A stretch of DNA of 64,000 nucleotides from Planctomycetia bacterium (lineage in GTDB: Bacteria; Planctomycetota; UBA8108; SXIK01): NCBI GenBank assembly GCA_005772855.1, contig SXIK01000066.1:1532-65531 (forward strand). The letters run 5' to 3'. Of the stretch, positions 23,528-53,585 are shown one piece after another. A program made the position numbers and the translations under genes. Each line of letters starts with the position of its first letter. Within the stretch, counting starts at the first letter, position 1. Below the pieces are notes generated by a model. The model ran no database searches. It was not told where the DNA came from and was given only the letters and a program-made list of their open reading frames with translations.

Positions 23528-23591
23528 TACTGTGGATTCCTTGTCAAAAAGTGAAGTCGAGGATTGTAAGACTCGCCACGACCGGGGGTCA

Positions 23592-37020: not shown

Positions 37021-37231
37021 TTCATGCTGCAAAGAGAAGCTCTCCCGGACTTCAATCGGCAGCGTCCAGGGAGGGGGTTGACCCTTTGCTTTTCCCGGCC
37101 TTGCTCAATGGTTTGTTATCACCACTTCCAACAAGCTTCGGCGGTTGCGTTGTAAGATTCCGGTGGGCTGGATGCCAGGGCTAGTCGCGCACCCCAGCGA
37201 CTCGCAAAGCGGACTCCAGAGGGGTCCTGGC

Positions 37232-40200
37232 TTATCGACTCAGCTCAATCATTTGCGCCACCGGGACCGAGGCGAACCGACAACCCTCCGCCATGGTTTC
37301 GATGTCCTTCGCTCCGGTGGTCTTGCGATAAGCCTGAGCTTGAGTGGGCTGCAACGTGCGCAGGATCACGTTGAGTCCAGAACTCGCGTGCTTGAATCTG
37401 ACTTCGGCCTCAAGGAAGCGCTTGTTGGCAAGAAATAGTTTGCCCAGCTGGTACCGTGTCTGCCAGAGGATCTCCGGGTAAGGAGCCTGGGCTGCCATGT
37501 TTTCCGCGAAAAGCAAGTTGCGCTCGGCACGGCTAGGTTGGCCACCTGGGATAACGGATTCCAGAGCCGCAGTGGCAAATAAGTAGCGGCACCGCAGGTA
37601 GGAGAGCTGAAGCTTTTCGGCCAAGTGTAGGCCCTCCTCGAAGTTCAGATAGGCTTGCTCATGTTGGCTCCGCTTGAGACACAGAAGCCCGTGCTCCAGA
37701 TACAGGTGCGCCAAGTCCCTCGCGCTGCCATGAGTCGTCAGCATTTCCGTGGCCTCGGTGAATACTTTCTCGGCATTGTCGAGCTTACCCTCGTCGGCCA
37801 GAACCATTCCCTCAATGAGACGAGCCCAGCCACCCAGCGACGGCAAGTCATGATTCCTTGACGCCTCGAATAGAGACACAATGGCCCTGCGCGCCTCGCC
37901 CGTGCGTCCAAGTCGACACAGGAGGTACCCTTGCTGAGTGGTCAGGCGCGCCACTGCGACGTGGCCCCTGAGGTCTCTGGCAGCCAGGACTCCCTCCGCC
38001 ACATGGTTGAGAGCCATGCCGAGATCACCCCTGTAGAGGGCCAGGTCACTCAGAAGCCCAAATATACCCAGCATGCCGGCATTGGAGCCGCGACCGGCAC
38101 CGCTCATCCTCTCCGCTTCCTCAAGATGTCGCTTCGCGTTTTGCAGCTCACCCTTGTCGCTGGCAACTCCGGCCATTGTGAGAAGGGTCTGCAGAGTCAG
38201 GCGACGCTTCTCGAGTGGCCCCATACGTCGCAACGCTTCCTCAATGACCTCGTGGCAAGCATCATATTCGCCCAGCAATCGGCACACTTCGGCAAGCGTA
38301 CAAAGAGCCGCCACGGAGTGGCACAAGTTGCCGGTTTTCGCGTAGAGGGACACTGCCTCCTCGAGGCTGGCTCGGGCCTCAACCTGGTTTCCTATCAGGT
38401 GGTACAATATGCCAATCTCTCGATGGCAGTCGGCCTGCCCGTCCAACGCACTGGTCTTGCGCCGCAGAAGGAGGCAAAGCTGAAACTGACGCAAAGCCTT
38501 GTGGAAATGTCTCTGATAGAGGTGGTACTTTCCACGACAGTACAGGCTCCAGGCCAACAGCTTTGAATCGTGCTGAGCCTCAATTAACCGCAGGGCCGTC
38601 TGGCAGTGACCGATCGCATTCTCCGAGCTGTTCAAGACAGAGTGATTCTCTGCTATCAGCATGTGGAGCTGCGACAAGAAGTATGGGTCTTTGAGCTCAC
38701 AGTTTGATTTCAAGAGTCGAGTACAGCATCGGAGGCTCTCAACAAGGTTGCCCTTGTAATAATGGAGTTCCGCCAGGGCCATCATGATGGCCGCCAACTC
38801 TGCCGTGGACTCACTGCCCTTGTCGGGTCGAACTGAGCGGTTCAGAAGAGCAGTGGCCTGGTCGAATCGTCCAAGCCGAGCGTAAGCCCGCGCCGCTTCG
38901 AGATAGACGCTGACCTTCTCCTGTCGCTTCAAGTCAGGCGGAAGTCGAGTGAGGTCAAGCAGATCAAGCGCTGCACTGTAGTCGCCGACCTGAAATTTCA
39001 GGGAAGCAATCGCACGCTCAATCTGAAAACGCAGGCTGCGCTCATCCGGTCCAACAAGGCCAAGCACTCGTTCGTAAGTCTCCATCGCCTGGATGGGAGC
39101 AAACTCTCTCGCCAGGTCCTTTGCCGCCTCGATTCCATACCGAATTCCCTTCTCCTTGTTCCCGGCTCGAATGTAGTGGTGAGCCAGGATCCTGGAGGAA
39201 TCCTTCCCAAGCGAGGCGACTCGCGACTCGCAAAGGACACCCGCTTTTTCGTGATACGCGGAGCGTTGCTCCTCCGGAATGCTGTTGTAAAGGATGGCTC
39301 GGGCGCTCGAGTGCACAAAGGAATAAGCACCCGCCCGATTCTCCGCGCCGCCACCCTGCAAAATTCTTTCAAGCGTCAAGACTTCCAAGCACTTCACGGC
39401 ATTCCGTTCGGGAATTCCTGACAGATGGACAGCGACGTCAAGCTCACACACGTCGCCCATGCAGGCGAAGGCTCTTCCTATCTGAAGCACTTCCTCTGGC
39501 AGTTTCGTGATGCGATACTTGAGCTCACGGCGGACCTTACCGGGAAGATCCTCGCTTTCGTAGTCGCTCCCCAGCGCCCAGCCCTGTGCCACCCGTGCAA
39601 TCTTGCCCCGGTGAAGAAGGTGTCGGAGGATGTCAATGACGATCTCAGTGTTGCCATCGCTTTCCTCGAGCACTCTCTGAACGAACGCCTCGGGACATTC
39701 GAGCCCGACGAAGGCGGTGCGCACAAATTCCGCAACCTTCTGCTCATCAAATCGCCGCAACTCAATCTCGAGTACGTTCTCTCGAAAAAACGTCGTGTCG
39801 CAAAGACGCAGGAAATCGCTGCTTCCCAGCTCGGCTCGCTCAAGGACGGTGCCCGTCATGAGAAGCTTTGATCGGGCCACGGATCCCCCCAGCGAGGAAC
39901 GTATCAGAGACTCGAGCAGATGCAAGATTGGCGTGCCGGCCAGGTGCAGGTCGTGAAAGCAAACCACGATCGGAGACTCCTGGCTGGCTTTCAGAAGCGC
40001 GTGAACTGCCTCCTTGAGCACAGGCTCGTACCCCTGGACGGGATTGTCCTTCAAGTCCTGAAGCCTCTGCACAAACCCAAACGCATTTTCGACGAAGGTC
40101 AAGGATCGCACTCTTCCGCGCAACTCGTCAATCGCACCAAGGTCGGCCACAATGCGTTCGAAGCCCTGCCCCGCCCTGGAATGGGCACCACATTCAATCT

Positions 40201-41419
40201 GGATAAATTTTGCTCCTTGCGCCTGTACGATCGCTCTGAACTCCTCGATCAGACGTCTTTTCTGTAACCCTTTCTCCCCACGCACCAGCACCAGTCGACC
40301 CGCCGGAACGGGGGTCACAGCGTCGACACGATCCAATGGCTCTGACTTGTCCACGGCATCGCTTTCGACTTCCTCCTCGGCGCCTATCACGCTGGATTTC
40401 AGGGAGGCCGCGGCAACGAAAATCTCGTAAAGCCTCGCCGACTCCGCCTCTCGTCCAGCAAGACGTGCAGCTTCAAGATAGCTATCAGAAGTCTCTGCCG
40501 TCTCGTACGGAAGCTTGAGCCCAAGAGCTCGGTTTATCGCCTCGATAACTTCAAGCGCGCTTTGAAAGCGATCCTGAGGCTTCTTCGCCATGAGCCTGAG
40601 AATGATGTTGCCAAACTCAAGGGGCAATGACGCCGACAGGGTATGTGGTGGTACGGCAGGCTGCTCAACGTGGCACTTGAGGATTTCAATATTCGAAGCG
40701 CCTCGGAATGGTGGGCTGCCGGTGCACAGGTGGTACAGCACCACGCCAAGTGAGTAGAGGTCCGTACGACGGTCGATCTGAGCGCCAAGGATCGTTTCAG
40801 GAGCAACATAGTAAGGAGTCCCCAGGATTTTCTTGCCGCCCGAGAGTCGCTCCTTTTTCACAAGACCAAAGTCGATGATCTTGACGAGCGGTTTTTCTCT
40901 TGATCCCGGTTGCAGTGAAACCTCTGTAGTCACCAGAATGTTTTCGGGCTTGATGTCCGAGTGTACGAGTCCACGCCCATGAATGTACTCAAGCCCACGC
41001 AAGACTTGGGCAGCAAGCTCAACGAAAGTCAGAAACCCCTCCTGTGACTTCATGTTGAGTTTTTGCGTGGCCTTCATCCAGCTTTGGCCGTTAACAAACT
41101 CGAACGTGAAGAAGAGATCTCCCGATTCGTAATCAATACCAAACTCGTACGCTGGCGTCAGGTTGGGATGTGGAAGCCCCGAAAGCGCCAGGAACTCATT
41201 CTTGAGGATATTAAGGGTACGCCGGTCTATCTTGTCCTTCCTGACTCGCTTCAGAGCTACAGGTTTTTCACCTTGAGAGAGGTCCAGGGCGAGATAGACA
41301 GCCCCCATTCCGCCCTGTCCGAGTAGGCGAATGGACCGATATCGGCCGTTCAGCAACTCCCCTGAATTCGGGTCACTTGCTACTTCTGGCCGGATAACTG
41401 GTGGGGTGGGCAAGCTCAT
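37232..41419 (-). CDS. Multidomain Ser/Thr protein kinase: N-terminal Hanks-type kinase, central STAND/AAA_16-like NTPase module, C-terminal TPR repeat array
   Basis: ORF 37232..41527, trimmed to MSLPTPPV. Kinase motifs GQGGMGAVYLA, VALKRV, HSDIKPEN, DFGL, YYVAPE. A P-loop-like GEKGLQKR (apparently degenerate Walker A) and hhhhD Walker B VVCFHDLH. At least 600 aa of TPR-like helical repeats at the C-terminus. Confidence 0.85.
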   Translation of the reverse strand: MSLPTPPVIRPEVASDPNSGELLNGRYRSIRLLGQGGMGAVYLALDLSQGEKPVALKRVRKDKIDRRTLNILKNEFLALSGLPHPNLTPAYEFGIDYESGDLFFTFEFVNGQSWMKATQKLNMKSQEGFLTFVELAAQVLRGLEYIHGRGLVHSDIKPENILVTTEVSLQPGSREKPLVKIIDFGLVKKERLSGGKKILGTPYYVAPETILGAQIDRRTDLYSLGVVLYHLCTGSPPFRGASNIEILKCHVEQPAVPPHTLSASLPLEFGNIILRLMAKKPQDRFQSALEVIEAINRALGLKLPYETAETSDSYLEAARLAGREAESARLYEIFVAAASLKSSVIGAEEEVESDAVDKSEPLDRVDAVTPVPAGRLVLVRGEKGLQKRRLIEEFRAIVQAQGAKFIQIECGAHSRAGQGFERIVADLGAIDELRGRVRSLTFVENAFGFVQRLQDLKDNPVQGYEPVLKEAVHALLKASQESPIVVCFHDLHLAGTPILHLLESLIRSSLGGSVARSKLLMTGTVLERAELGSSDFLRLCDTTFFRENVLEIELRRFDEQKVAEFVRTAFVGLECPEAFVQRVLEESDGNTEIVIDILRHLLHRGKIARVAQGWALGSDYESEDLPGKVRRELKYRITKLPEEVLQIGRAFACMGDVCELDVAVHLSGIPERNAVKCLEVLTLERILQGGGAENRAGAYSFVHSSARAILYNSIPEEQRSAYHEKAGVLCESRVASLGKDSSRILAHHYIRAGNKEKGIRYGIEAAKDLAREFAPIQAMETYERVLGLVGPDERSLRFQIERAIASLKFQVGDYSAALDLLDLTRLPPDLKRQEKVSVYLEAARAYARLGRFDQATALLNRSVRPDKGSESTAELAAIMMALAELHYYKGNLVESLRCCTRLLKSNCELKDPYFLSQLHMLIAENHSVLNSSENAIGHCQTALRLIEAQHDSKLLAWSLYCRGKYHLYQRHFHKALRQFQLCLLLRRKTSALDGQADCHREIGILYHLIGNQVEARASLEEAVSLYAKTGNLCHSVAALCTLAEVCRLLGEYDACHEVIEEALRRMGPLEKRRLTLQTLLTMAGVASDKGELQNAKRHLEEAERMSGAGRGSNAGMLGIFGLLSDLALYRGDLGMALNHVAEGVLAARDLRGHVAVARLTTQQGYLLCRLGRTGEARRAIVSLFEASRNHDLPSLGGWARLIEGMVLADEGKLDNAEKVFTEATEMLTTHGSARDLAHLYLEHGLLCLKRSQHEQAYLNFEEGLHLAEKLQLSYLRCRYLFATAALESVIPGGQPSRAERNLLFAENMAAQAPYPEILWQTRYQLGKLFLANKRFLEAEVRFKHASSGLNVILRTLQPTQAQAYRKTTGAKDIETMAEGCRFASVPVAQMIELSR

Positions 41420-41560
41420 GGAATCCTGCCCGTAGAATACGATGCGAAAGCCGGACGGGTAAGGCTGCCCTGGAGAAGAGGAACTTCCAAGGCGCCCTGG
41501 CGGCCAGGAAGCGGACAGGCCCGACAAGTGAGGCCATCCTCAAATGAAAGGCTCGGGCTA

Positions 41561-42709
41561 CTATTCAAGTCGCAGATCTGCGACTCGGAGGCCCCTTTGC
41601 ATTCGGCACAGTGTGGGGCAGGCCACTTTGACCGCTATGGGAATGATTTCCTGACCTAGCCGCCATGCCGCCTCCGGGGGTGGTGACTGGGTGGGGTGGA
41701 TCAAGAACACTTGCTCCTCGGCCAATTCCAGGAGACTGGCCTTTCCCGGGATCCAATTGGGTGACGCGCAGGCATATGCTGCCTCCAAACTCGACAGATA
41801 GGCTGCGATGTTCTCGTTTCCTTCAGCAGGCAGAGGAGCCTTCGCCATTCCGTAGCTGCCAAACGCTCCACTTCCGCTACTCCCGGAGCGCTGCAGAAGA
41901 ATCTCCGGAACGAGCGCCGACAAGAGGATGAATTCAGCAGTTCTGCTGGCCACCACTTCAAGATTGGCGGAGACCATGAATGCTTGATCAAAGGCCCTCG
42001 AGTTTTCGATCTCCTGAATTGCGCCGCGGAAGCTGCCCCACGCCTTCGGAAAGGGTCGTGTCAGAAGGTGCAGCACTGTTCGCCCTCTTGAGCCTCGCCC
42101 GAAAAATTCCCGGAGGTCGAGTAGCAAGTCTGGCAATACAGTCACCCAGGGATCTTCTATCCCAATAACAACATGGGCCGTAACCCTGGACTCATGAGAC
42201 TTCGCGAGGTGCTCTGCCAGAAGAGGTAGTGGGCTATTGGTGCCTGCGGTTGCTCTATACAACGCACGTAGATACTCTCCATATCTTGGATTGAAAGTGA
42301 CTTCTGTCTCGCTGTTCGATTCAAAAATCACAGGAATCACCTCCGGGGCCAAGTCTCTGCCGCGGGACGTCTCCAGGTCAAGATAGAAGAGTTGCGGGAA
42401 GGCGCCTGGCTTTCGCTGTTGGGCCAACGCCGCAAGGGTGGCTCGTCCCATTTCGCCAATCGCGATCACTGCCGTCTGAGCATCTGGACCTCCGAGTATG
42501 TCGGCAGCTTCTATCACCCTCCCAAGAGGTAGAGACAGGAGTTGGCCATCGAGCGCGCCTGCGTGAAGGAGCATGGAGCTTGCACCGAGGAGGTCTTTCA
42601 AACTCTCCAGGTCGACAGGTTCCGAAAGCGCCTCTTCGATCAGGCCCCGCAGCTGGCTGAACGCACCGGGTTCACCCAAGCGCAGAGCCACATCTTCCGT
42701 CCAGCTCAT
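41561..42709 (-). CDS. Hypothetical protein, 382 aa
   Basis: The long ORF is on the cluster strand and its stop is 142 nt upstream of the kinase start. Codon usage matches its neighbours; no motif recognised. Confidence 0.55.
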   Translation of the reverse strand: MSWTEDVALRLGEPGAFSQLRGLIEEALSEPVDLESLKDLLGASSMLLHAGALDGQLLSLPLGRVIEAADILGGPDAQTAVIAIGEMGRATLAALAQQRKPGAFPQLFYLDLETSRGRDLAPEVIPVIFESNSETEVTFNPRYGEYLRALYRATAGTNSPLPLLAEHLAKSHESRVTAHVVIGIEDPWVTVLPDLLLDLREFFGRGSRGRTVLHLLTRPFPKAWGSFRGAIQEIENSRAFDQAFMVSANLEVVASRTAEFILLSALVPEILLQRSGSSGSGAFGSYGMAKAPLPAEGNENIAAYLSSLEAAYACASPNWIPGKASLLELAEEQVFLIHPTQSPPPEAAWRLGQEIIPIAVKVACPTLCRMQRGLRVADLRLE

Positions 42710-43326
42710 GGCGCAGACCCCGGGTTGTCATTCCTTTGTCCGCCCCTTGCCCGCTGTCGTGGCCTGGACCCAAGAAGAACGGAAAGCTGCTCGAGGCCTT
42801 GCTTCGCAACGTGCAGCAAGTCACGCCGTACAAGATCGAGCGCAATCTTGATCCGCTCGGCACGTCGGTCAAGGAGGAGAAGTCGCGAACGAAACTTGAA
42901 CCCCACGTGCGCGCCAACTGGGTACTCCGCAAAAGACCTCTCCAGGGTCTTTTCCTCGCCAACGAACGCCTCTATCTCCGGGAGCATTCTTTCCCAGCGG
43001 GACCCAAGTGCTTCGAAGCCATGGGGCACTTCCTCATACTCGACTCCCTTGCCTGAAATAACACTGCTCCCACTCAACAAGGGTGCAAGAAAGAATCGAG
43101 AGATCCTTGCCCAGGCGTCGCACACTCGTTGCCCGCTTCGAGCCTCATCGAGAATTCCAAGGCTGCGAGATGCCTCTCGGAACGCTTCCACCGCTCTGGA
43201 CAGGCTTTCGAGGCGCCGCTCAGCATCCAGCAACCCACCGATGGCAGACACGAGTTCCTCGGGCTTTGCACCGGGAGAATCCACGGTCGAAAGAGACTCT
43301 CTGATAAATCCTGGCAGGCGGCTCAT
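42706..43326 (-). CDS. Hypothetical protein, 206 aa
   Basis: Stop overlaps the start of the downstream 382-aa gene by 4 nt (translational coupling). Largely helical-looking; no motif recognised. Confidence 0.5.
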   Translation of the reverse strand: MSRLPGFIRESLSTVDSPGAKPEELVSAIGGLLDAERRLESLSRAVEAFREASRSLGILDEARSGQRVCDAWARISRFFLAPLLSGSSVISGKGVEYEEVPHGFEALGSRWERMLPEIEAFVGEEKTLERSFAEYPVGAHVGFKFRSRLLLLDRRAERIKIALDLVRRDLLHVAKQGLEQLSVLLGSRPRQRARGGQRNDNPGSAP

Positions 43327-43380: not shown

Positions 43381-45477
43381 TCACGTCCTTGCCAACTCGG
43401 CGCTCCGTATGCCGCCAAGAACACGAATGAAGACTGCCTCATCGTTCACTGAATGACGAAGGTCGTTCTCTCGCGAGTATTTCAAGAAATCAGCTCCAAA
43501 GCACCGCAAGAGCTCATCTCGGTCACCAGGGCGCGCCCAGAGCGGGGCCGAGGCCTCGCTCAACCGTTCCAGGAGATCTTCAGGATGGTCGTCAAAGATC
43601 TCCAAGACCTTGTCCACGTCGAGCATCTGGGCCTTCTCTCTTCCCCAGGCAGCCGCGCTTTCCTCAGCCATTTCCGTTGGCGTCAAGGCGCCAGGCAAGG
43701 GAGAAATCCGATTCAGAAGCCCCGGCACGAGCGCCTCTACCGCGGAGCGTCCACCCATCCAATCGTAAATCTTGCGCGAGCCGTCCGCCGGAAAAACGTC
43801 ACCGGAGAAGCCGCGTCCAGCTTCCCAGCTTTCGACTTCAGCAAGCTGAAGTCTCCAGCTTTCCACTGACTCGCGCAGTGAATTAACACAGCGGTCCAGG
43901 AAGACAAGCCCGGATTCTTCTTCCTTTGCAGTCTCCAAATCCGCGGCGAGACTCGCCTTCAAGGAGTCAAGACGCTCCTTCTCCTCAGGCTCCACCTGAT
44001 TCCTGAGCTCCCCCCAGAGCTGAATCGAGATGCCCGAGGTAATTCGGCGCATCTTCTCACGACGGCTGTAGTGCTCCAGCGCACGCGGGACTGGAAAACC
44101 AGCTGTGAAACTGCCTTCAGGAAATTCACCCAGCGTAAACGTCTCCCTGGACCATCGCAGTCGTATGAACCAACCCAGGGCGAATCCAAGGAGAGCCCCG
44201 ATGCCGAACCCGCTGAGATATCCGGCCAGATTCAGCCCGCTCAAAAGAAATCCCAGAAACGACCCTGCCAGAGCACCACCCAGGATGGTGGGAAGGAAAG
44301 GCATGTACACCGGGAGAAGCACCGAGACTCGTGCGATCCAGCTGTCGCGCATCGGCGTCTCGAGCGAAAGGGCCTCGTTTTCTTGACGTATGTTCTCGAT
44401 GCGCTGAGCAGCCTCTCCAAGACGCTCGAAAAGCGCCAACTGCACCCGATCGAGCGCAGTCGCCCACCCGCCAAGGCTCGGAGTCCGAGCTACATCCAAG
44501 GAACTGATCCATTCCACGATATGGTTTTCGATTCTCTTCTGACCGTCAGTTTCCAATGACGCCTTCATCTGAAGCAGCAAGTCAAGGAAGGCGCCACAAT
44601 CAGTACCATCAGGAGCCACGGGCTTTGCCGTGAACGTTCGCGAAAGCGCTCGCTTCAAGTCTCTTTTCAGGAGCCTGCTCAGCTCGTCAGCCAGCGCGTC
44701 CTTGCTGAATCTAAAACGCGACAGCCCCATTGAGCTGAGCCCGACGATGCCTTCCTCCTCTGAACCTCGCCCATGCAAGTCAGCCACCTGGGGAAATGTT
44801 CGCCAAATATCGGCGGAGGCCTCGCTCGCACTTCCCAGAGCGAGGAAGTCAGACAAGAGCTCGGTGAGGTCTTCCCATCGCTCCAGTGGGTGTCCATTTC
44901 GATTGACACGATCGAGGATAATCGAGGGGAAAAGCACGCCTCTTTGCACAAGCCCTTCGAGCCTTCGTAGCCCCTTGAGAGCCTGATCGCGCTCCATGTC
45001 TTCGTCCGTCGACGGCAAGTGAAACAGTGGGAAGATTCCTCTCGCGCGCCCTGCCGCCGGTGGCGCCTCGTTTCGATTATGGATCTTCTCCGCAATCGCG
45101 AAAACGATCTCCCACCCCAGGGTATCGGACAGGCATTCGACCAGATAAATGTCCGGTCCTCCTCTTACTACCTGGAAGCATGTGTCAACCTCGGCCGGAC
45201 GCCGTAGGGCATCGGTACGCACCCGGATATTTCCGATCGCCGCCGATGCATAGGTAAGAGTCTGCCAAAGCTGATTCTGAAGATTCCCTTCGAATGAGGG
45301 GAGCTTGGAGCGCTTTGAGCCCAGCTTCAAATCAATGGACTCTTCGGTGACGGAGAGAAAGGAGAAAACATCTGGAACGACACCCAATCGCCTCCGAATC
45401 GCCACGGGAACCGAGGCGTAAAGATCCGGCGCCAGCTTCCCAAAAAAGCAAAAAATGCTCGGACGGACGGCAATCAC
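43381..45477 (-). CDS. 698-aa hypothetical protein with a central cluster of transmembrane helices
   Basis: Start lies 3 nt after the tubulin-like gene stop. Central hydrophobic segment ARVSVLLPVYMPFLPTILGGALAGSFLGFLLSGLNLAGYLSGFGIGALLGFALGWFIRL, flanked by large soluble, charged, coiled-coil-like regions. Confidence 0.6.
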   Translation of the reverse strand: MIAVRPSIFCFFGKLAPDLYASVPVAIRRRLGVVPDVFSFLSVTEESIDLKLGSKRSKLPSFEGNLQNQLWQTLTYASAAIGNIRVRTDALRRPAEVDTCFQVVRGGPDIYLVECLSDTLGWEIVFAIAEKIHNRNEAPPAAGRARGIFPLFHLPSTDEDMERDQALKGLRRLEGLVQRGVLFPSIILDRVNRNGHPLERWEDLTELLSDFLALGSASEASADIWRTFPQVADLHGRGSEEEGIVGLSSMGLSRFRFSKDALADELSRLLKRDLKRALSRTFTAKPVAPDGTDCGAFLDLLLQMKASLETDGQKRIENHIVEWISSLDVARTPSLGGWATALDRVQLALFERLGEAAQRIENIRQENEALSLETPMRDSWIARVSVLLPVYMPFLPTILGGALAGSFLGFLLSGLNLAGYLSGFGIGALLGFALGWFIRLRWSRETFTLGEFPEGSFTAGFPVPRALEHYSRREKMRRITSGISIQLWGELRNQVEPEEKERLDSLKASLAADLETAKEEESGLVFLDRCVNSLRESVESWRLQLAEVESWEAGRGFSGDVFPADGSRKIYDWMGGRSAVEALVPGLLNRISPLPGALTPTEMAEESAAAWGREKAQMLDVDKVLEIFDDHPEDLLERLSEASAPLWARPGDRDELLRCFGADFLKYSRENDLRHSVNDEAVFIRVLGGIRSAELART

Positions 45478-45480
45478 AAA

Positions 45481-48210
45481 CTACTCCGCCTCCGATTCAC
45501 GCACAGAATCCGTGGAATCGGCCAGGCCCCACTTGCCCAGACGCAAGAAGCGGTCGAGCCCGGACGCCTCGTTCCAGGCCACCTTCGCGTCTTCGCCACC
45601 CAACGAATCCACGTTGCTCTCGTCCTCGCGACAGGCTCCGGCAAGACGGAATGCTTCCTTGGCCCACAGCTCAAGGACACCTGGGATCTCCCGGTTTCGA
45701 TGCCGTTTTCGCAGCTCGAGGAGAACTCTGTCCCGCACGATCCTTGGGTTCGACTGGTAGACTCTCCTGAAAGCCTTGTACGCTCCAGCGCGCCCCTTCA
45801 AATTGGGCTCCTCCGGCGTCACCAGGCCGCGCAACGCGAACTGCGCATCGTCTGTGGAGACGACAAAACCAAGCCGCACCGCCAGACCAAACAGCTCGTA
45901 GACTTCGGCATCGAGGCCGGGATAGGGATTCGCTATCATCCAATCCGAGGAAAGCCATTCGTCGTTTGCACGCCGCCGCTGGTTCGAAAATGCGTACCGC
46001 ACAAAGTCTTCGTGATAGTCTTTCAGCCAGCGGATGTGATGCAACGGGGCACCATGATCCACCTTGAGCAGCGTCACCTGTCCGTAGCCATCGGTGCTGC
46101 ATCGGTCGCTCTCGGGCTCGATGACAGGCTCGATCTCGCTCGATCGGGGGCAACCGATCCTGCGGATACGTTCAACTTGATCCTGTTCACCCTCGATGCT
46201 CCAGTTGACTTGCACCTGGCTTTCCATCTCCGAAAGGCGCTCCCGAATGACGGAGACAGGCATGAGACTGCCCTGTTGACCAAAGTAGGAGCTACACTCC
46301 TCCTGGAACTCCTCGCGGACTTGGTTGGAAACAGCCAGGCAGGTCTCGACAAGCTTTGTTGTTGGAGGGCCCAGATAGAGTGCCGTGGCGAAACGCTTGA
46401 GCCCGCGAATCATCGACTCGGCGACCTCCGCAGGGACGTCGCTCATGCGGTAAAAGCTTCCGCCATGGCGGGAGTGAGGCGTATCACCATTCACCGAGGC
46501 ACGCAGGTTGAGGCGAGTCACGAAGTCCTTCTTGATTCGAAGAGTCTCTTGCCTCTCTAGGCGTTCCTGAAGGTCCCGCACGAAGTTCTGAATCTCTTGG
46601 CGCTCAAGCTTCAAGTGGTGCTCTCGAAGCACAACCTGATCACATCGCCTCCACACTTCAACACGCTGCACACTTTCGGCGTCGTCACGCTGCTGCTTGC
46701 GGATCTCCTCAAAAAACTGCACTTCACCTTCGAGAATCTTGGCCTCCTCCGGATCGATCAACCGAAGGTCGCGAAGCTCCTGCAAGCTCTTCGTGAGGTG
46801 AATCAAGAACGTGCGGAGGAAGGTGGGCTCGACCCCCTGCCGGTTGAAATACTTCGTGAGCTGAGACAAGTTGTTGTCCCATTCCTCGCGGAGCGCAAGC
46901 TCAATGGAGCTTCGCCACGGGTCATGAGTTTCACGACGGATTCGATTGAGGGTCTCTTGATGCTGGTTGATATCGCGGTTGATTTCCGGCAGCTCGACCA
47001 TCCCTTTTCTGCCCATGACCGAGTGGAAGGATGCCAGATCCACAAGCGCGCTCTGCACGTGTCGGTTGGCTTCCTCCTCCAGCCGCTCCAGCACCCCCTG
47101 GCGAAAATCTACGATGAGTGGGTTGGATTCGTCTGTTTCGAGGACTGGAGAGCCTTGCAGGAATTCGGCGATCTTGTGGTTGAAGTAGTCCTTCAGCGCG
47201 CCCCGTGACAGGTCTCGATAGCCTGCTCCGAAGGAGCAGTAGACCGTGGGTTCTCCGTATTGGTCTTTCTGGGAGAGGCAGCTCTCCCAGAGGTTAATCG
47301 CGGCAGCACGATAGCTCTCTCCTTCCTTTCCCAGCGCGCTCAACCCTATGAATCTGCCGATCTCGCGACAGAGATCTTCTCTCACTTGCAAGCTACCGTC
47401 GGGCCGGCCCGCGTTGAGCAGATAGAGGAAGTTGAAAGGGATCATCGGGATGACCTGCTTCTCATCTCGATACTGCGCTTGCCAGCAGCCTTCCTTGAAA
47501 AAATGGTTGATCTCGGAGAGGACTGCAAAGGCATTTCTGCGAAAGTTGAGCTGCCGTGACTCGGAGAGGGCGAATGCCTCGGGCAGGAGCATGTATCCTG
47601 TAACGACAGGGTCCTTGCCCGTGATGCGCTCGGCCCAATCACGGATGTCGTAGACTGCAGGTAGCAGCATTCCGCCGCCAGTACCCCCGGCGCAAGAGGA
47701 GACGACGTGAATCTGAATCCCACTCCTCAGACGTGGGCGAATGAGGCTCTTGTAGTAGTGGAACTCGCGATCTTCAACTTGAGGAGAGCTCAGGCGCCGG
47801 ATCTTGTCCGAAAGGCGACCGTAGACGAGCCTCCCGTCCCGCCGGATGGCGTAGCAAAGGCGCCCAACGTGGCGGATGCCTCCAGCTCCAAGCGTCAACT
47901 CGCCTGGAAGATAGCGGCTCCTGGGGAACCAGGAAATCTCCGGGTACTCCTCCCGATGCGCGAGCACACTCTGCAAGTTGAATCCTCCCAGATCCGAGAA
48001 TTCATCCGCATTGAGGGCGGCCATGTCAGGGCCATTTGCAATCGACATCTGCTCCGTGGTGTCGAGCACCAGGAGCTCGACAAAAGGAATATCAGAAAAG
48101 TCGGGCGTGCTCAACTCACGCTGAAGCAAGGCCTTGACGTGTTTGGCCACGAGCTGACCTGTGCCGCCAAGCCCAAGGATGAGTGTCAGTGGAACCCGCC
48201 GTTCCTCCAT
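45481..48210 (-). CDS. Divergent FtsZ/tubulin-superfamily GTPase, 909 aa, with a long C-terminal charged/coiled-coil extension
   Basis: N-terminal roughly 300 aa carry the superfamily loops in order and plausible spacing: T1 LILGLGGTGQLV; T3 LTLGAGGIRHVG; T4 signature VVSSCAGGTGGGMLLP (compare GGGTG[ST]G). A possible T2 acidic loop is LVLDTTEQM. The rest is rich in Glu/Arg/Gln heptad-like sequence. Confidence 0.7.
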   Translation of the reverse strand: MEERRVPLTLILGLGGTGQLVAKHVKALLQRELSTPDFSDIPFVELLVLDTTEQMSIANGPDMAALNADEFSDLGGFNLQSVLAHREEYPEISWFPRSRYLPGELTLGAGGIRHVGRLCYAIRRDGRLVYGRLSDKIRRLSSPQVEDREFHYYKSLIRPRLRSGIQIHVVSSCAGGTGGGMLLPAVYDIRDWAERITGKDPVVTGYMLLPEAFALSESRQLNFRRNAFAVLSEINHFFKEGCWQAQYRDEKQVIPMIPFNFLYLLNAGRPDGSLQVREDLCREIGRFIGLSALGKEGESYRAAAINLWESCLSQKDQYGEPTVYCSFGAGYRDLSRGALKDYFNHKIAEFLQGSPVLETDESNPLIVDFRQGVLERLEEEANRHVQSALVDLASFHSVMGRKGMVELPEINRDINQHQETLNRIRRETHDPWRSSIELALREEWDNNLSQLTKYFNRQGVEPTFLRTFLIHLTKSLQELRDLRLIDPEEAKILEGEVQFFEEIRKQQRDDAESVQRVEVWRRCDQVVLREHHLKLERQEIQNFVRDLQERLERQETLRIKKDFVTRLNLRASVNGDTPHSRHGGSFYRMSDVPAEVAESMIRGLKRFATALYLGPPTTKLVETCLAVSNQVREEFQEECSSYFGQQGSLMPVSVIRERLSEMESQVQVNWSIEGEQDQVERIRRIGCPRSSEIEPVIEPESDRCSTDGYGQVTLLKVDHGAPLHHIRWLKDYHEDFVRYAFSNQRRRANDEWLSSDWMIANPYPGLDAEVYELFGLAVRLGFVVSTDDAQFALRGLVTPEEPNLKGRAGAYKAFRRVYQSNPRIVRDRVLLELRKRHRNREIPGVLELWAKEAFRLAGACREDESNVDSLGGEDAKVAWNEASGLDRFLRLGKWGLADSTDSVRESEAE

Positions 48211-48296: not shown

Positions 48297-51200
48297 TCAC
48301 CAATCAACGATGATTGTCGAGTAGTCCACAACACCCGGAACTTTCACGCTGGCTCGCAGCTGGTTTCCGCTTTTCCCTACCCAGCCGTTATAGGGGAAAT
48401 CCTCGCCCGGAGTGAGCGTGACACTTCGTCCGCTCGCCGTGGTAATACGCAGCTTGCCATCCGGCTGAAGTCGAAGCGAGAGAAGTGATTTCTCCCCCTC
48501 GCCCTTCCTTCCAGCGCCATCGTGCAAGACGAACACGTCCGGGCACGAGTCCCCGTTCCGGGCCCCCTCCCCCTGGGCGATGCACACATCGGCGCCCCGT
48601 ATCGGAAGGCGCTTCTCCGTCTCAAGACAAAGCTCTGTGCGCACTTCGGAGAGGCGATCTTGAATCAACTTGAGGCGCTTCGCGTTTCTCTGCGGATCGG
48701 AGAAAATAGAAGTCTCCATGGAGAAATGATCGGTTACCCAGGCCTCCACCTCGGCTCCCGAAACCTTTCCGTTGAGCTCCAGCGGCCCGATCGTTCGATT
48801 CGCAAGTGTAATGCGAAGGCTTCCAGTCAGGCTCTCTCTGGGCTCGGCTTCAAGATCGTGGATCGCCTTGTCCTTCCGGACACTGACACGCTCAAGAACT
48901 TGTTGTCGATCCCGGTAATACCCGAGGCCTCTGATCCCAAGGAATCCCAGAAGCACGACAAGACCGGCCAAGGCCCCGTAGAGAAGTCCTGTGTACGCTC
49001 GCTCCGTGCTCCCCTTCGTCGCCTCGAACTCGAACTTGCGCTGGAGCGGTGTCTTGCCCCTGATATCGAGCTGAAGCGTATGTTTTCCAAAACCTGCCGG
49101 GGTATAGGGGACAAAGACCACGAGGCCCGAGGTCGCCGTGTCGACATCAAGCACCTTCTCGCGTCCGTCCTCGGACACGACGATCGCCGCGACGCTCTTG
49201 CGAAGCGAGTCCTCCGACTCGACCAGCCCGCCGATGCGATACCCCAGACGGATGCTGGAATCCCTGGGAATGCTGAAGACCGGAGGCAAGTCCCTCGTTT
49301 CATAACCTGACGGCCCCTTCTCGAAGCTCATTACCTCCACAAGGGTTCCGCCTCCGCGGACAATATCGAGATCCAGCCCGTCGAACTCGATCGCGTTAGG
49401 CTCGGCCGCCCGATCCGTCAACCGGAGACGAACCTTCACGGCGCTCGTCGAGAGTGGCTTCGTCGAAAACGAGTTGAGAATGAGCACTCCAGGCGGCGTT
49501 CCCTTCTCGGCTTCCCACTGGGTAAATTCGACGTTGAGCTGCTGAGCACCCTCGCCAAGAAGTCCGGGCCGCAAGACAAACAAACGATCAAAGCTCTCCT
49601 TGTCGAGGGACGGCGGCCCGCTGATCTTGACCGAAAGAGGAAGTTTTTGGCCATCATCAAGCTTGATTGTTGTGCCAAGGTCGCGGGACCACTGGAGCTT
49701 GAGGGGCGGCTCCACGAGGAACTTCTCCTCGACCGTCCAACTCGTACCCTGCCCGAGACTGGCTTCGGCACGGACCCTGTAATTACCTTCTTTCTTGGGT
49801 GACCAGACCAGCTCTGTCGAGTCAGAAGAAGCCATCTGGGTGCTGGCTGCATCGACCTCGCCTCCGGAGTAGAGTTGAATCCTGGAATTTCGCTGCGGAG
49901 CCTGCCCTTCGATCGTCACCCGCAAGCGCTCTCGGGCCATGAAGGGCAACACGGTCGCGCCAGCCCCCAGGTCTTGCTCCTCGGCTCGGCTAAAGACGAG
50001 TTGAAGGGTCGACGGGCCAATCGCGACTTTCCGCTGCTCGATGGCCTCGCCCTCCCTCGTGTTCACCGACACCACGAAGCTGTCCTTCAGGCCCTTCTCG
50101 GCGGCGGCGTTGAGGTACGCGGCAAATTCGATCCTCACGCCGAACAGAGCCTCGAGGGTGGCCTCCTTGGGAGGCGGAAGTAGCTCGAACCCCTCAAGCA
50201 CGTTGGCCGGCGTCGTTGAAATGAAGGGTCGCAAGATCAGCTCCTTGCCTGCCTCCTCGCGTTGCGACTTCAATCCACCGCGCACGATGACAGCCCCTTC
50301 GATATACGTACGCTCCCCGCGTCCGATATCCGACGGAGGCGATTTTGTCCAGGCCACCTCGTATTTCAGGGACACGGGGTTCACATCCAGGGTCCCGAGG
50401 GACAACTCAAAGGTGCGTCCACCCGCGTCGCTGATCGTGAGAGCCAGAGTGTTCCTTTTTTCCAGGCTTTCCAGTGAGATCGGCTCCGAACGGAACTTGC
50501 CCTCGGCCTCCGACCAGCGGATGTCGCCCTTGCGCCCGTTGAGATACAACTCGGCGCTCACAACCTTCTCCGTTCCGGTCTTCCCGGTGGCCGACGCAGG
50601 CTCCACGCTCACCCAGATCACTCCTTCGCCCTGGCTACTTGACTGGTCGGTTCCCGCGCCGAGCAGGACCCTCTGGTCGGTGCCTTGCGAGCTCTTCACG
50701 ACCGTTGCCGAGAATGGACAGGGGCGCACGTTGAAAAAACAGGCGGCGATATCCTGCCCTAGCTTGGCCAGTGGCGAGCTGACGACAAGCTTGTGAGTAC
50801 CCGGATCAAGCACCACGGCCTCAAGGGTGCCTATCAAGGCGTCACCTTGCAGGGTCAGGTCAACATGATGAATCTGCTCGGACTCGCCGATCGTGACATT
50901 CGCAGGCTGCGATTGCCAGACGCTGAGAAGATCACGTTGAGTCTGCGCATTCTGGCCGCCCATCGCACGCAAGCGGAAGCGAATGGCTGATCCACGCTGG
51001 CCCAGGAGCACGTCCCCGTCGATGGGCTCGATCACTATTCCGAGCGCCCTGGTGCGTGAGAAGACCTCGTAGTCTTCCGTGATGACTCGATCCATCGATC
51101 CGTCATTCCATTTCATGACGACATGAAGCTTCGCTGGTCCCGTGTGAAAGTCAGTCGTGGCAAACGCGAGCGAATAGTGCCCGTCGAGTTCCTTCACAGC

Positions 51201-53585
51201 CTTGACCTCCTGGGGAGCGCCCACATCCTTTCGAGCCCAGGTGAGAGTGCCAGCAATCGAGCTTTTTACCTTATCAGGAAAGACCTGGCTGGGAGAAACC
51301 CTGAACAGTAGTGGACTGCCAGCCAGTACAGTGGGCTTCCCCGCCTCAGTTTCGAGGGCTCTTCCCCCCTCCGAGGTGAATCCAGCTGTGAACGCTCGGG
51401 GCTTCACCTCAAGCCTGTCACAGCGTTGGTCGCTTGTCGGATCAGGACCCATGGGTCTCTTCTCGGGCCATGCAATCAGATAAATCCCCGGCTCCAGCCC
51501 GCCGAGCTCTCCGCGGTAGTTGGCCGAGATCTCAGCGTCACCAGATCTTGGCGTCTCGCTGACAAGAGTCACCTGCCGGACAAGCACCCAGCTACCGCTC
51601 GCATCATCCCTCTTCAGGAGAGAAATCTTTGAAGGTGCTGATGACTCTGTCTCCCAATACTGGGCGGTGGCAGCCGGCGTGAGGTGATTCATGGTGCGCG
51701 ATCTCGAGATCTGCACAATTTCACCCTGATAGAACGCGCCGAGGTCACGCCCCTGGGCACTATCGGTACCATCCTTCGAGTACTGGCTGCCCGGCGGACG
51801 AAAGTCGTCGCGAAGAACCCTCAGACTAAACAGGGCTTCCTGAACGCCGCCGGCCTTCACTGTCACCTTCGCCTCGTAGAGACCGGGCGTTGTGGGAAAA
51901 ATCCAGTCACTCGAGAAAGTCCGGGGAACGCCACCAGAATCCTTCATGCGAAGTCTGCGTGCGGCGCTCTCGCCGACGGCTCCGAATGTCGCGCTGACCT
52001 CCGTCTCCGCAAGAGACTCCTGTCCTCCGTAAGTGAGCTCAAGCCTCACCTCCTGACCCAGCTCCACATCCACATTGCGCCGGCTCGCAGGACGAGAGGC
52101 GCTTTCGGGCTCGCCCTTCCAATTCTTTCGCACAAACCAGTCGAAGCTCGACGGCACTACCATGAAAGAACGGTCGGGGGCCCGGCTGAGAGGCCGTTTA
52201 CTGACCGCGCTATCAGCCGAGGCCCCCGTGTACACGAGGCTGGCTTTCGTTCTCAGGAAGAAAGACTCCTGAATCTTGGCCTCCCCCTTGGGCGAGGACG
52301 TGGGGATAAAGTAGAGACGGTTTCCAGCTCCCGCTGAAATTTCGGCTGCGGAAAGCGATTTGTTATCAAGAATCTTGCCTTCCGAATCACTCAGCTCGAT
52401 CTTCACACTCGACTTCTTCAACGTGTCCTGAATCGAACGAGCGCGCTCGGGGGTGAGGTCGGCGGGCAAAGAGATCCGGAATCGAATGGGATAGACCTCG
52501 TTCTCGCTGATCTTTGTCTTCACACCCTCGGCAGCGACCGTACCCTCATCTCCAAGGCCTGGAAGCGCCTCCAGCCGAACATTGGAAATCACGAAGACGT
52601 CGCCCGACGCCGGAACGCCGCTGCGGCTGGGCAAGAACTCAACCCATTCCGGCCAACGAACATTCTCTCCCGGGCTCAAGACGACCACGGTACGGTTGCG
52701 ATAGGGGGTGATGGTCGCATCAAACTCGCCGCTGATCAGCTTCGGGTTGTCGAGGTTGATATCCATCTCTCTCGACCCTATTCGGAGCTTCACATCTCGG
52801 GCATTTCTCTGGAAGACGCAGAAGAGTTGCCGGTCCGTTGGCCAGGTGGCCAGACGTGCCGAGATCGGTTCACGGTGGAAGGACATGTGGGGGGCAATCA
52901 GCTCAATCAAGATGTCCTCAATTCCCCGTTCAGGCTGGACTTGTGCCGCAGCACCCCCCGTCTTTCTGGCAAGATCCCGCAACAGGTCCTCCCCGGCCTG
53001 AAGTTGCTTGTCTTCATAGTAGAGCTTCTCGCGACGACGCTTCTCCCGCTCTGCCTTCGGGATCGAAAAGTCGTTGAGGAGGATCGTGTTGATGGCCAGG
53101 CCGATCTCTTGTAAGCCTCTTTTCTCCTCATCGAGACGACCCGCCAGGTTGGGAGCCTTGCCAGCCTGCACGCCGTCAGAAAGAAGGAAGAGATGAACGT
53201 CAGCAGCGCGGCCTTCCGGCTGGACGATCTTGCGGGCAAGGCTCAGCGCCGCGCCAATATCCGTGTCTCCCAGAGGCGGATCCTCCGAGATCAGTTTTCT
53301 GAGCGCTTCAAGATTCTGCGGACGCACCACCTCCCGGGAAAGGACAGCCTCAGGCGTGCCAGCAAAGCGGATAATCGTGAGACGGTGAGTCTCGTCCAGG
53401 CCTTGCACCAGGAGGTCCACCAGGATCTTCTGCGCATCGAAGCGGCAGTTGTAGGGATCATTCTGCGTCATGCTCTCGGAACGGTCGAGAACAAGAACCC
53501 AGTCCGTCTCCGCAGCGGATCTGGTAGTGAGCAGAAACTGCATGAGGGCGGCAGCAGACAAGACGACAAGCCTATTGTGCATCAT
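48297..53585 (-). CDS. Giant (1762 aa) signal-peptide protein with an N-terminal von Willebrand A (MIDAS) domain, long beta-rich ectodomain, single C-proximal TM helix and a cytoplasmic tail
   Basis: Signal peptide MMHNRLVVLSAAALMQFLLTTRSAAETDW. VWA with MIDAS LVLDRSESM...TDIGAAL...LSDG. About 1300 aa of repetitive beta-strand-like sequence. TM helix YTGLLYGALAGLVVLLGFLGIRGLGYY followed by about 270 cytoplasmic residues. The start is 9 nt after the upstream gene stop. Confidence 0.8.
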   Translation of the reverse strand: MMHNRLVVLSAAALMQFLLTTRSAAETDWVLVLDRSESMTQNDPYNCRFDAQKILVDLLVQGLDETHRLTIIRFAGTPEAVLSREVVRPQNLEALRKLISEDPPLGDTDIGAALSLARKIVQPEGRAADVHLFLLSDGVQAGKAPNLAGRLDEEKRGLQEIGLAINTILLNDFSIPKAEREKRRREKLYYEDKQLQAGEDLLRDLARKTGGAAAQVQPERGIEDILIELIAPHMSFHREPISARLATWPTDRQLFCVFQRNARDVKLRIGSREMDINLDNPKLISGEFDATITPYRNRTVVVLSPGENVRWPEWVEFLPSRSGVPASGDVFVISNVRLEALPGLGDEGTVAAEGVKTKISENEVYPIRFRISLPADLTPERARSIQDTLKKSSVKIELSDSEGKILDNKSLSAAEISAGAGNRLYFIPTSSPKGEAKIQESFFLRTKASLVYTGASADSAVSKRPLSRAPDRSFMVVPSSFDWFVRKNWKGEPESASRPASRRNVDVELGQEVRLELTYGGQESLAETEVSATFGAVGESAARRLRMKDSGGVPRTFSSDWIFPTTPGLYEAKVTVKAGGVQEALFSLRVLRDDFRPPGSQYSKDGTDSAQGRDLGAFYQGEIVQISRSRTMNHLTPAATAQYWETESSAPSKISLLKRDDASGSWVLVRQVTLVSETPRSGDAEISANYRGELGGLEPGIYLIAWPEKRPMGPDPTSDQRCDRLEVKPRAFTAGFTSEGGRALETEAGKPTVLAGSPLLFRVSPSQVFPDKVKSSIAGTLTWARKDVGAPQEVKAVKELDGHYSLAFATTDFHTGPAKLHVVMKWNDGSMDRVITEDYEVFSRTRALGIVIEPIDGDVLLGQRGSAIRFRLRAMGGQNAQTQRDLLSVWQSQPANVTIGESEQIHHVDLTLQGDALIGTLEAVVLDPGTHKLVVSSPLAKLGQDIAACFFNVRPCPFSATVVKSSQGTDQRVLLGAGTDQSSSQGEGVIWVSVEPASATGKTGTEKVVSAELYLNGRKGDIRWSEAEGKFRSEPISLESLEKRNTLALTISDAGGRTFELSLGTLDVNPVSLKYEVAWTKSPPSDIGRGERTYIEGAVIVRGGLKSQREEAGKELILRPFISTTPANVLEGFELLPPPKEATLEALFGVRIEFAAYLNAAAEKGLKDSFVVSVNTREGEAIEQRKVAIGPSTLQLVFSRAEEQDLGAGATVLPFMARERLRVTIEGQAPQRNSRIQLYSGGEVDAASTQMASSDSTELVWSPKKEGNYRVRAEASLGQGTSWTVEEKFLVEPPLKLQWSRDLGTTIKLDDGQKLPLSVKISGPPSLDKESFDRLFVLRPGLLGEGAQQLNVEFTQWEAEKGTPPGVLILNSFSTKPLSTSAVKVRLRLTDRAAEPNAIEFDGLDLDIVRGGGTLVEVMSFEKGPSGYETRDLPPVFSIPRDSSIRLGYRIGGLVESEDSLRKSVAAIVVSEDGREKVLDVDTATSGLVVFVPYTPAGFGKHTLQLDIRGKTPLQRKFEFEATKGSTERAYTGLLYGALAGLVVLLGFLGIRGLGYYRDRQQVLERVSVRKDKAIHDLEAEPRESLTGSLRITLANRTIGPLELNGKVSGAEVEAWVTDHFSMETSIFSDPQRNAKRLKLIQDRLSEVRTELCLETEKRLPIRGADVCIAQGEGARNGDSCPDVFVLHDGAGRKGEGEKSLLSLRLQPDGKLRITTASGRSVTLTPGEDFPYNGWVGKSGNQLRASVKVPGVVDYSTIIVDW

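Follow-up and report, generated by a model that had tools for sequence, protein, structure and literature searches.

The closest described relatives of the protein considered here belong to FtsZ-like 1 (FtsZl1), a family described by Makarova and Koonin (Biol Direct 2010; PMC2875224) and held in Pfam as Tubulin_2, PF13809 (PMC9871819). Members of this family have an FtsZ-like domain at the N-terminus, a long helical or coiled-coil region and a helical C-terminal domain, and their predicted operons encode a vWA protein with an intact metal-ion-dependent adhesion site (MIDAS), Ser/Thr kinases and membrane proteins (PMC2875224). The planctomycete members form a clade of their own, the family coexists with FtsZ in phyla other than planctomycetes, and filaments of FtsZl1 would, according to the same authors, need a novel mechanism (PMC2875224). 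The stretch of DNA analysed here, called the window, comprises 64,000 nucleotides of contig SXIK01000066.1 (assembly GCA_005772855.1, positions 1,532 to 65,531 of the forward strand) from a Planctomycetia bacterium, and carries at 45481..48210 on its minus strand a gene for a 909-aa protein, which we call Tub. It is nearly certain that Tub is a member of FtsZl1, which is more divergent than any other known branch of the tubulin/FtsZ superfamily, and that it stands in a rare planctomycete clade. The favoured explanation overall, which combines this identity with a role as a membrane-associated switch or scaffold, is given a probability of roughly 0.55. Coordinates below are those of the window, and features lie on its minus strand unless marked (+).

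The open reading frame (ORF) of Tub, for which the original prediction named no strand, runs from ATG to stop over 909 codons, with a Shine-Dalgarno-like GAGGAG 7 nt 5′ of the ATG. At 138.6 bits (cut-off 27) and E=4.1e-40, positions 1-352 of the 356 in the Tubulin_2 profile align with residues 10-349, and the domain of residues 1-350 (47161..48210) is predicted to be a GTP-binding domain of the tubulin/FtsZ fold. Tub bears three marks of FtsZl1, namely a hidden Markov model (HMM) match above cut-off over the whole domain, the described architecture and a vWA neighbour with a MIDAS, the one blemish being the loss of Asp184. No model of NCBIfam, PADLOC or PHROGs matches Tub. A Foldseek search with the Tub model returned the tubulin/FtsZ superfamily in each of the top 50 matches, the best being CetZ and archaeal and eukaryotic tubulins at 11-18% identity and TM-scores of 0.33-0.46. 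The figures given for the fold comparison are 17.4 for both an Asgard tubulin and gamma-tubulin, 17.1 for BtubA, 17.0 for OdinTubulin, 16.2 for FtsZ, 15.9 for PhuZ and 15.6 for TubZ. Sequence comparison with solved structures is by itself insufficient to establish this fold, since it gave no significant match. The profile of the close clade found neither FtsZ nor tubulin in the PDB, the full-length diverse profile was swamped by helical bundles and gave no significant tubulin/FtsZ match, and a profile of 27 diverse N-terminal domains (N-domains) reached FtsZ only at E=3-8, with FtsZ making up 23 of its 26 sub-threshold matches, aligned up to T4. Profile searches of the PDB yielded no solved structure related to FtsZl1 by sequence, and hhalign of the family against the single E. 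coli FtsZ sequence covered T1-T2 only (E=0.0055, probability 6.6%). Some Tubulin_2 members also match PF00091. An AlphaFold model of full-length Tub, built with 15 close homologues, had a predicted local distance difference test (pLDDT) score of 46.8, with the N-domain below 50, and was discarded; Foldseek with this model found nothing at E<=0.001. By its Pfam match and predicted fold, Tub is a real but very divergent tubulin/FtsZ relative, whose N-terminal 350 residues are modelled in the nucleotide-binding fold of the superfamily and keep loops T1-T4.

These loops were the basis on which the original prediction had assigned Tub to the superfamily. The strings that it named are present and in order, with LILGLGGTGQLV for T1 at residues 10-21, LTLGAGGIRHVG for T3 at residues 105-116 and SSCAGGTGGGMLLP for T4 at residues 171-184, and its spacing of about 160 residues between T1 and T4 comes to 161 when counted from G15 to G176. 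Conservation was counted in an alignment of 136 diverse family N-domains. In the T1 loop GLGGTGQ (residues 13-19, 48154..48174), G15 and G18 are present in 136/136 relatives, G16 in 99% and G13 in 95%, and T17 is likewise among the invariant or near-invariant positions. D50-T51, at the site of the NTD/T2 motif of FtsZ, and W94 are near-invariant. The T3 loop TLGAGGIRHVGR (residues 106-117, 47860..47895) has the near-invariant residues G108-A109 and G116-R117-L118, with G108 in all 136 sequences, A109 in 106, G116 in 135 and R117 in 132. In T4 the near-invariant residues are S172, G175-G176-T177-G178-[SA]-G180 and then D184; Tub has SCAGGTGGGM at residues 172-181 (47668..47697) followed by P184, and G175, G176 and G178 are found in 136/136. 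P210 and F213 are also near-invariant, as are N226, P258-F259, L264 and N306; these positions may correspond to T5 (P210 and F213) and T6, an equation made provisionally, by eye and without residue-level alignment. Tub carries every family-invariant residue of the N-domain except D184, and has Gly at position 179 instead of Ser or Ala. Site 184 (47659-47661), which lies four residues beyond the T4 signature, is Asp in 133/136 family members and Pro or Ser/Thr throughout the clade of the window. Relative to the superfamily signature GGGTG[ST]G, the first Gly is replaced by Ala and the [ST] by Gly.

The catalytic T7 loop is a different matter. The motif N.D..[DE], for which the original prediction could find no candidate by eye, occurs nowhere in the 909 residues of Tub and in none of the N-domains of the 136 relatives. 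N306 (47293..47295), an Asn found in 131/136 relatives, is a candidate remnant of the T7/H8 region. It sits 40 residues past N266, similar to the 42 residues between N165 and N207 in E. coli FtsZ, and no acidic residue past N306 is conserved among the 136 relatives. In a model of residues 1-360, H7 spans residues 277-293 and the next helix residues 295-312; what follows H7/H8 in the model amounts to a single helix and some very short strands (pLDDT 64-76). Within residues 1-360 the activation domain therefore looks vestigial in the model, although later segments of the protein, for which the full-length model is of low confidence (pLDDT 46.8), may contribute to it. The family-wide absence of T7 and the apparently vestigial activation domain make canonical cytomotive dynamics, with GTP hydrolysis coupled to polymerisation as in FtsZ and tubulin, doubtful for Tub, and it would be unsafe to suppose that the protein works as FtsZ does. 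Of the earlier proposal that Tub is an accessory cytomotive GTPase and not the division protein, the accessory part remains plausible in view of its rarity, its vWA and kinase neighbours and the lack of a dcw context, and the cytomotive part is doubtful.

The N-domain of Tub is followed by a helical stalk and then by a C-terminal module specific to the family. The middle region (residues 351-650, 46261..47160) is charged, and the low-confidence full-length model renders residues 364-642 mostly as long helices, with pLDDT of 50-84 up to about residue 555 and below 50 beyond it. The C-terminal ~560 residues contain 31% Asp, Glu, Lys and Arg compared with 24% in the N-domain, so that the earlier description of this part as charged holds, and the description as heptad-rich is not supported as worded: a crude heptad-register test found clear heptads at residues 524-558 alone, and the heptad score of the middle region was not above that of shuffled sequences, 44/200 of which reached the observed value. 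A profile of the middle region matches apolipoprotein and designed helical bundles. The C-terminal module (residues 651-909, 45484..46260, with a core at about 660-850) is recognised as a second HMM match at about query positions 660-850, which recurs in the corresponding part of 32 distant relatives; H719, G720 and F774 are invariant in its 18-sequence alignment, and in the full-length model a structured region extends over residues 770-890, with pLDDT 70-86 at residues 770-860. Residues 768-836 of the module (45703-45909) resemble the C-terminal domain of T. maritima RecA (PDB 3hr8, residues 271-336) at E=6.5e-5 and 0.0028. This kinship was not confirmed, as E. coli RecA gave a probability of 0.2% and no other RecA was matched.

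HMMER, run exhaustively against 1.84 billion representatives, matched 1509 clusters at E<=1e-3 and 380 at the stricter E<=1e-10. Their lengths are mostly 850-1100 aa, and the long C-terminal extension is therefore the norm of the family. It had been taken as a departure from canonical members of the superfamily; it is in fact part of the architecture that defines FtsZl1 (PMC2875224). The clade of the window is a single 50%-identity representative in this set, and the next match, at E=8e-61, covers the N-domain only at ~35% identity. Among 5.8 billion clustered proteins there are 17 close relatives of Tub (67-100% identity), those that are named coming from metagenome-assembled genomes (MAGs) of Planctomycetes/Planctomycetota, and 15 full-length homologues of 69-86% identity were collected from Planctomycetota MAGs and metagenomes. 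Word-index searches for homologues yielded nothing beyond the close clade and short fragments. The clade is present in one of 185,579 species-representative genomes, a groundwater Planctomycetota MAG. Short Tubulin_2 proteins occur in other settings, one of 468 aa (L009:10001-11407) and one of 533 aa (L008:10001-11602). One of the two lies among FtsK/SpoIIIE and WXG100 genes, a type VII secretion-like setting, and also touches PF00091; the other is surrounded by small genes that lack annotation, a ParA-family gene lying ~9 kb upstream of it and a MazE/PemK pair ~8 kb downstream. The Tubulin_2 family is not tied to a single genomic context.

Immediately upstream of Tub lies the gene for a 1762-aa vWA protein (48297..53585), in which PF13519 VWA_2 matches residues 30-138 at E=8.5e-14; it has a sub-threshold match to an NCBIfam vWA-domain model and none in PADLOC or PHROGs. 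The protein has an N-terminal signal-like segment, the MIDAS sequence DRSES at residue 34, one transmembrane segment at residues 1533-1551 and a tail of ~210 residues. The same topology is found in the vWA partners of all six loci compared (the window, L001, L010, L011, L015 and L016), even where Pfam calls no vWA domain: a signal-like N-terminus, a MIDAS DxSxS at residues 34-57, a region of 600-1700 residues free of transmembrane segments, a single transmembrane segment near the C-terminus and then a tail of 130-330 residues. This is an integrin-like layout.

On the other side, 3 nt after the Tub stop, starts gene B (43381..45477), which encodes a 698-aa membrane protein that Pfam, NCBIfam, PADLOC and PHROGs assign to no family. 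Directly downstream of Tub there is a B-type gene (686-951 aa) in 7/7 loci with a complete downstream gene, the others being L001:12734-14836, L010:13315-16170, L011:11264-13708, L013:3462-5888, L015:12976-15183 and L016:9583-11643. The N-terminal domain of B (residues 1-385, 44323..45477) is recognised by hhalign as a degenerate tubulin-like domain with no GTP loops. The seven B N-domains align with the 27-sequence alignment of Tub N-domains at 97.0% probability (E=1.1e-10) over 264 columns, end to end (6-279 against 6-355), and with the 136-sequence alignment at 97.9% (E=5.3e-13) over 272 columns. The B pair of the window clade alone and the five distant B proteins alone each give 86% at E about 5e-6 against the 27-sequence alignment. 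The controls, for which we took reversed sequences, the vWA domains (whose alpha/beta fold is likewise Rossmann-like), A, C, the C-terminus of B and the C-terminal module of Tub, were all at or below 0.4% with E>=0.15. The N-termini of B proteins (RPSIFCFFGKLAPDL, TPTLLVGAGELGRRIV and CPLLMIAFGESAESV) resemble that of Tub (RPTLIIGLGGTG) in the first strand and the T1 loop, with the glycines lost; in the alignment residues other than glycine stand in place of GGTG of T1 and GGTGSG of T4, and most of T2-T3 has no counterpart. Pairwise BLASTP of Tub against B, and of Tub against D, found no match. On these profile comparisons B is a predicted membrane-anchored paralogue of the tubulin-like domain that lacks the nucleotide loops. 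Two hydrophobic segments form a putative transmembrane hairpin at residues 386-438 (44164..44322), which has a weak match to the PF13488 Gly-zipper (E=0.022 in the window, 0.0014 in L001), and the other B proteins have 2-6 transmembrane segments. Protein D may be a second degenerate paralogue, as it aligns with the 27-sequence Tub alignment at 78% (E=1.8e-5). The match is partial, covering the half from T4 to S7, and unstable, falling to 7.8% (E=0.0044) against the 136-sequence alignment.

These genes are part of a conserved and probably co-transcribed cassette. Every gene between 55265 and 37232 is read from the minus strand, with short spacings throughout: A is followed after 9 nt by the vWA gene, 86 nt further on by Tub, after 3 nt by B and after 54 nt by C, whose end D overlaps by 4 nt, and 33-141 nt beyond D lies the gene for a large kinase. 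Gene A (53595..55265) encodes a helical protein of no family with a weak TPR_17 match only; it is 556 aa as called on an identical public contig, and the longest ORF reaches 55475. Gene C (42706..43326) encodes 206 aa of no family, and gene D (41561..42709) 382 aa. None of A, B, C and D belongs to an NCBIfam, PADLOC or PHROGs family. Both the identical public contig and L001, a relative at 71% identity, carry A, vWA, Tub, B, C and D; in both the window contig and L001 a ferrochelatase gene lies on the same side of the cassette. L010, L011, L015 and L016, where the N-domain identity is ~22-35%, share the order A, vWA, Tub, B; in distant relatives C and D mostly come next. The A position is occupied by a gene of 556-804 aa in L001, L010, L011 and L015 and by a 1005-aa TPR protein in L016, and the C position by a gene of 152-206 aa in L001 and L011. 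In order, the sizes (aa) are 688, 2064 (vWA), 951 (Tub), 814, 152 and 467 in L011; 722, 1586 (vWA), 1087 (Tub), 951 and 348 in L010; 804, 1379, 992 (Tub) and 735 in L015; 1005 (TPR), 839, 934 (Tub) and 686 in L016; and 935 (Tub) and 808 in L013. Phmmer detected no similarity between the partner proteins of distant loci. A scan for promoters and terminators gave fewer matches than shuffled sequences, and Rfam and tRNA scans gave none.

The large protein at the downstream end of the cassette (37232..41527, 1395-1431 aa) combines a Ser/Thr kinase (Pkinase, E=1.2e-44), a STAND-like AAA_16 domain and a TPR part of ~500 aa, and its kinase domain matches the PADLOC models PD-T4-6 and mad6. The gene adjoins the cassette only in the lineage of the window, is not at that position in L001 and does not belong to the conserved core. 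Kinase or FHA genes lie within 10 kb of the cassette in the window, L001, L010 and L016, which are four of the six loci that have 5 kb or more of flanking sequence on each side. Directly downstream of the large kinase, an FHA domain is fused to a GGDEF diguanylate cyclase (36043-37032), which suggests phospho-threonine-dependent cyclic di-GMP signalling. Just upstream of the cassette, and not at that position in L001, is a gene for a 524-aa protein (55624-57198) with ~9 transmembrane segments and weak GT87/MptB-like matches (polyprenol-phosphate-mannose-dependent mannosyltransferase). Elsewhere the window, of 60% GC, encodes a BamA-like Omp85/POTRA protein (23469-25949 (+)), a 956-aa protein with a C-terminal NPCBM domain (2834-5704) and a molybdopterin-binding subunit of the xanthine dehydrogenase family (7003-9336), as well as large ORFs with no Pfam family at E<=1e-5: 13683-17363 (1226 aa), 19468-21405 (+) (645 aa) and 27606-29621 (+) (671 aa).

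From the order of these genes and the predicted properties of their products we infer, tentatively, that three proteins form a membrane-embedded core and that Tub, its cytoplasmic subunit, binds GTP and would act as a GTP-gated scaffold or switch. The first component would be the vWA protein as a single-pass receptor, its vWA/MIDAS and ectodomain of 1300-1700 aa placed in the periplasm and its tail of 200-330 aa in the cytoplasm; the second would be Tub, and the third B, membrane-anchored and devoid of GTP loops. GTP-bound Tub would pair head-to-tail with the pseudo-tubulin domain of B, in the manner of the active and inactive alpha/beta-tubulin paralogues, and the helical stalks and C-terminal modules would bundle Tub–B units into a scaffold attached to the membrane. 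Since the catalytic residues of T7 are missing, GTP would serve as a slow switch for assembly and not as fuel for treadmilling. Assembly would couple the binding of a ligand by the periplasmic MIDAS to a response in the cytoplasm or membrane, the neighbouring Ser/Thr kinases and FHA proteins being likely regulators, and the output could be either envelope remodelling or a conflict or immune response. More speculative still is the extension of this scheme to a heterotypic tubulin machine of Tub and B, possibly with D, which would be the prokaryotic counterpart of the alpha/beta-tubulin pair and be wired to the integrin-like MIDAS receptor as a transmembrane GTP-gated cytoskeletal signalling system of bacteria without FtsZ. 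The pairing of Tub with B, if true, would be an independent bacterial case of a heterodimer of active and inactive tubulin folds and would show the tubulin fold working without the canonical longitudinal catalytic contact.

Several points weigh against this interpretation. GTP binding, Tub–B pairing and oligomerisation are predictions, searches of the literature turned up neither experimental studies of the FtsZl1 family nor biochemical data for any of its proteins, and the full-length model of Tub is unusable. The loss of Asp184 and the Gly at the [SA] position of T4 imply that the clade may bind nucleotide differently or not at all. The equivalence of the partners between distant loci rests on order, size and topology and, in the case of B alone, on profile comparison as well. 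Planctomycete genomes contain many Ser/Thr kinases, and the proximity of kinase genes to the cassette may therefore be due to chance.

The alternative that fares best, and which we hold to be possible on about the same tentative footing as the switch mechanism itself, is that the cassette works against invaders or in kin conflict, like the systems put forward in 2020 by Kaur, Burroughs, Iyer and Aravind (PMC7159879), who read neighbourhoods of tubulin, vWA and coiled-coil genes in this way. The vWA ectodomain, variable and periplasmic, would sense the invader, an NTP-dependent multimer of Tub would set the threshold, and B, with its glycine-zipper hairpin, or the whole assembly would be the arresting or killing effector. 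The patchy distribution of the family, including the presence of the clade in a single species genome, fits such a role, as does the arms-race-like variability of partners that lie beyond detection by phmmer even where the Tub N-domain is still matched at E=1e-52 to 1e-62; the adjacent kinase–AAA_16–TPR protein, with its PD-T4-6 and mad6 matches, and the weak glycine-zipper match of B point the same way. These PADLOC matches, however, are generic and reflect the kinase domain as such, and neither PADLOC nor PHROGs has a match for Tub, vWA, A, B, C or D. The defining DO-GTPase and GAP1 are absent as well: no Walker A or NKxD motif occurs in any cassette protein, and the Pfam matches of A, B, C and D at E<=10 include none to DO-GTPase/GAP1 families, with the coverage of those domains by Pfam not verified. 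Moreover, the flanks are of a housekeeping kind (ferrochelatase, on the same side in both loci, and URO-D and galactokinase in L001), and no integrase or other defence gene was seen in them.

A filament-forming role in shaping membranes, as first proposed by Makarova and Koonin, is rather less likely. Tub would then self-polymerise in a GTP-dependent manner through a novel interface, and membrane-tethered filaments would shape the cytoplasmic membrane into vesicles or the invaginated endomembrane of planctomycetes. The tubulin/FtsZ fold with intact GTP loops, the membrane-associated partners, the published inference (PMC2875224) and a long helical region that could serve lateral bundling are all compatible with this proposal. 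However, the T7 catalytic motif is found in 0/136 relatives, the activation domain, which provides half of the longitudinal interface, appears vestigial in the model, and the mechanism would have to be novel (PMC2875224).

No planctomycete has ftsZ, and how the phylum divides instead is not known (PMC10632474, PMC5147048); a tubulin-superfamily protein with membrane tethers in such a phylum invites the suggestion that it replaces the division ring. This is very improbable, and a division role is rejected on distribution: the clade, which amounts to one 50%-identity cluster, 17 near relatives in 5.8 billion clustered proteins and a single species genome out of 185,579, is too rare across the phylum. 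In addition, Tub has no dcw context and no T7, and the family coexists with FtsZ in other phyla (PMC2875224). The original prediction had also set division aside, arguing that the genome keeps ordinary cell-envelope genes. That argument is weak, because the close relatives of Tub are Planctomycetota, which do without ftsZ altogether (PMC10632474). Finally, the notion that Tub is no tubulin relative and owes its glycine loops to a Rossmann or P-loop family, the order of the motifs being coincidence, could appeal to the insignificant matches to solved structures (FtsZ at E=3-8) and the weak alignment with E. coli FtsZ (E=0.0055, 6.6%), but is effectively refuted on fold by the Foldseek results, by the full-length PF13809 match, by the family members that also match PF00091 and by the predominance of FtsZ, aligned up to T4, among the sub-threshold PDB matches.

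Tub is therefore not a new family or a new kind of protein. It is, with near certainty, a divergent FtsZl1 member with the published architecture and the published vWA neighbour. What the analysis adds is the recurring gene order, the topology of the vWA receptor and the putative pseudo-tubulin domain of B, which was not found in the 2010 paper of Makarova and Koonin (PMC2875224); B as a pseudo-tubulin and the topology of the receptor deserve to be followed further. The FtsZl1/Tubulin_2 family, the most divergent branch of the superfamily, numbers ~1500 representative clusters, and testable handles are provided by a confident model of the GTP-binding domain, by the family-wide absence of T7 and by a three-protein core that suggests what to co-express and co-purify.

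Compared with known systems, Tub differs from CetZ and the tubulins in lacking T7, in an activation domain that appears reduced to a few short strands and in its 550-aa extension. From FtsZ it differs in having no match to PF00091 or FtsZ_C, no NxDxxD motif and no dcw context, and its 161 residues between T1 and T4 compare with about 86 in FtsZ. TubZ and PhuZ keep the catalytic T7; Tub is chromosomal with housekeeping flanks and has no PHROGs match, and A, B, C and D, being without a Pfam or NCBIfam family, show no recognisable DNA-binding (TubR-like) domain. The alpha- and beta-tubulins are a paralogous pair of which one is catalytically relevant, and integrins have a MIDAS ectodomain, a single transmembrane segment and a cytoplasmic tail, placed beside a cytoskeletal protein. 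Both analogies are functional only. In that with the tubulins, the inactive paralogue B has no GTP loops at all and is itself membrane-anchored; in that with integrins, no homology is claimed beyond the vWA fold. The tubulin themes of Kaur et al. belong to DO-GTPase/GAP1-N2 systems, with one or two TRAFAC DO-GTPases, GAP1 and an FNIII-repeat protein, and are described as restricted to Firmicutes and Actinobacteria, loci with two tubulin-domain genes being mentioned for Firmicutes only (PMC7159879). The cassette resembles them in placing a tubulin domain with a C-terminal coiled-coil or helical domain beside a membrane-bound extracytoplasmic vWA protein, and differs in that no DO-GTPase, GAP1 or FNIII-repeat protein is detectable at the window cassette. 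Tub is thus not FtsZ, TubZ/PhuZ or part of a DO-GTPase system. Among FtsZl1 proteins Tub stands in a separate rare clade, with Asp184 replaced by Pro and the [SA] of T4 by Gly, and its cassette has neither the P-loop GTPase (the 'distinct GTPase' of Makarova and Koonin) nor an OmpA partner; the kinase is a separate gene, unlike the N-terminal fusion of the planctomycete members described earlier (PMC2875224). It shares with FtsZl1 the family-specific inserts between T1 and T4, the lack of an alignable T6-H7/T7 region and, apparently, of the FtsZ/tubulin C-terminal domain, an adjacent vWA protein with an intact MIDAS, nearby Ser/Thr kinases and lineage-specific, membrane-associated partners.

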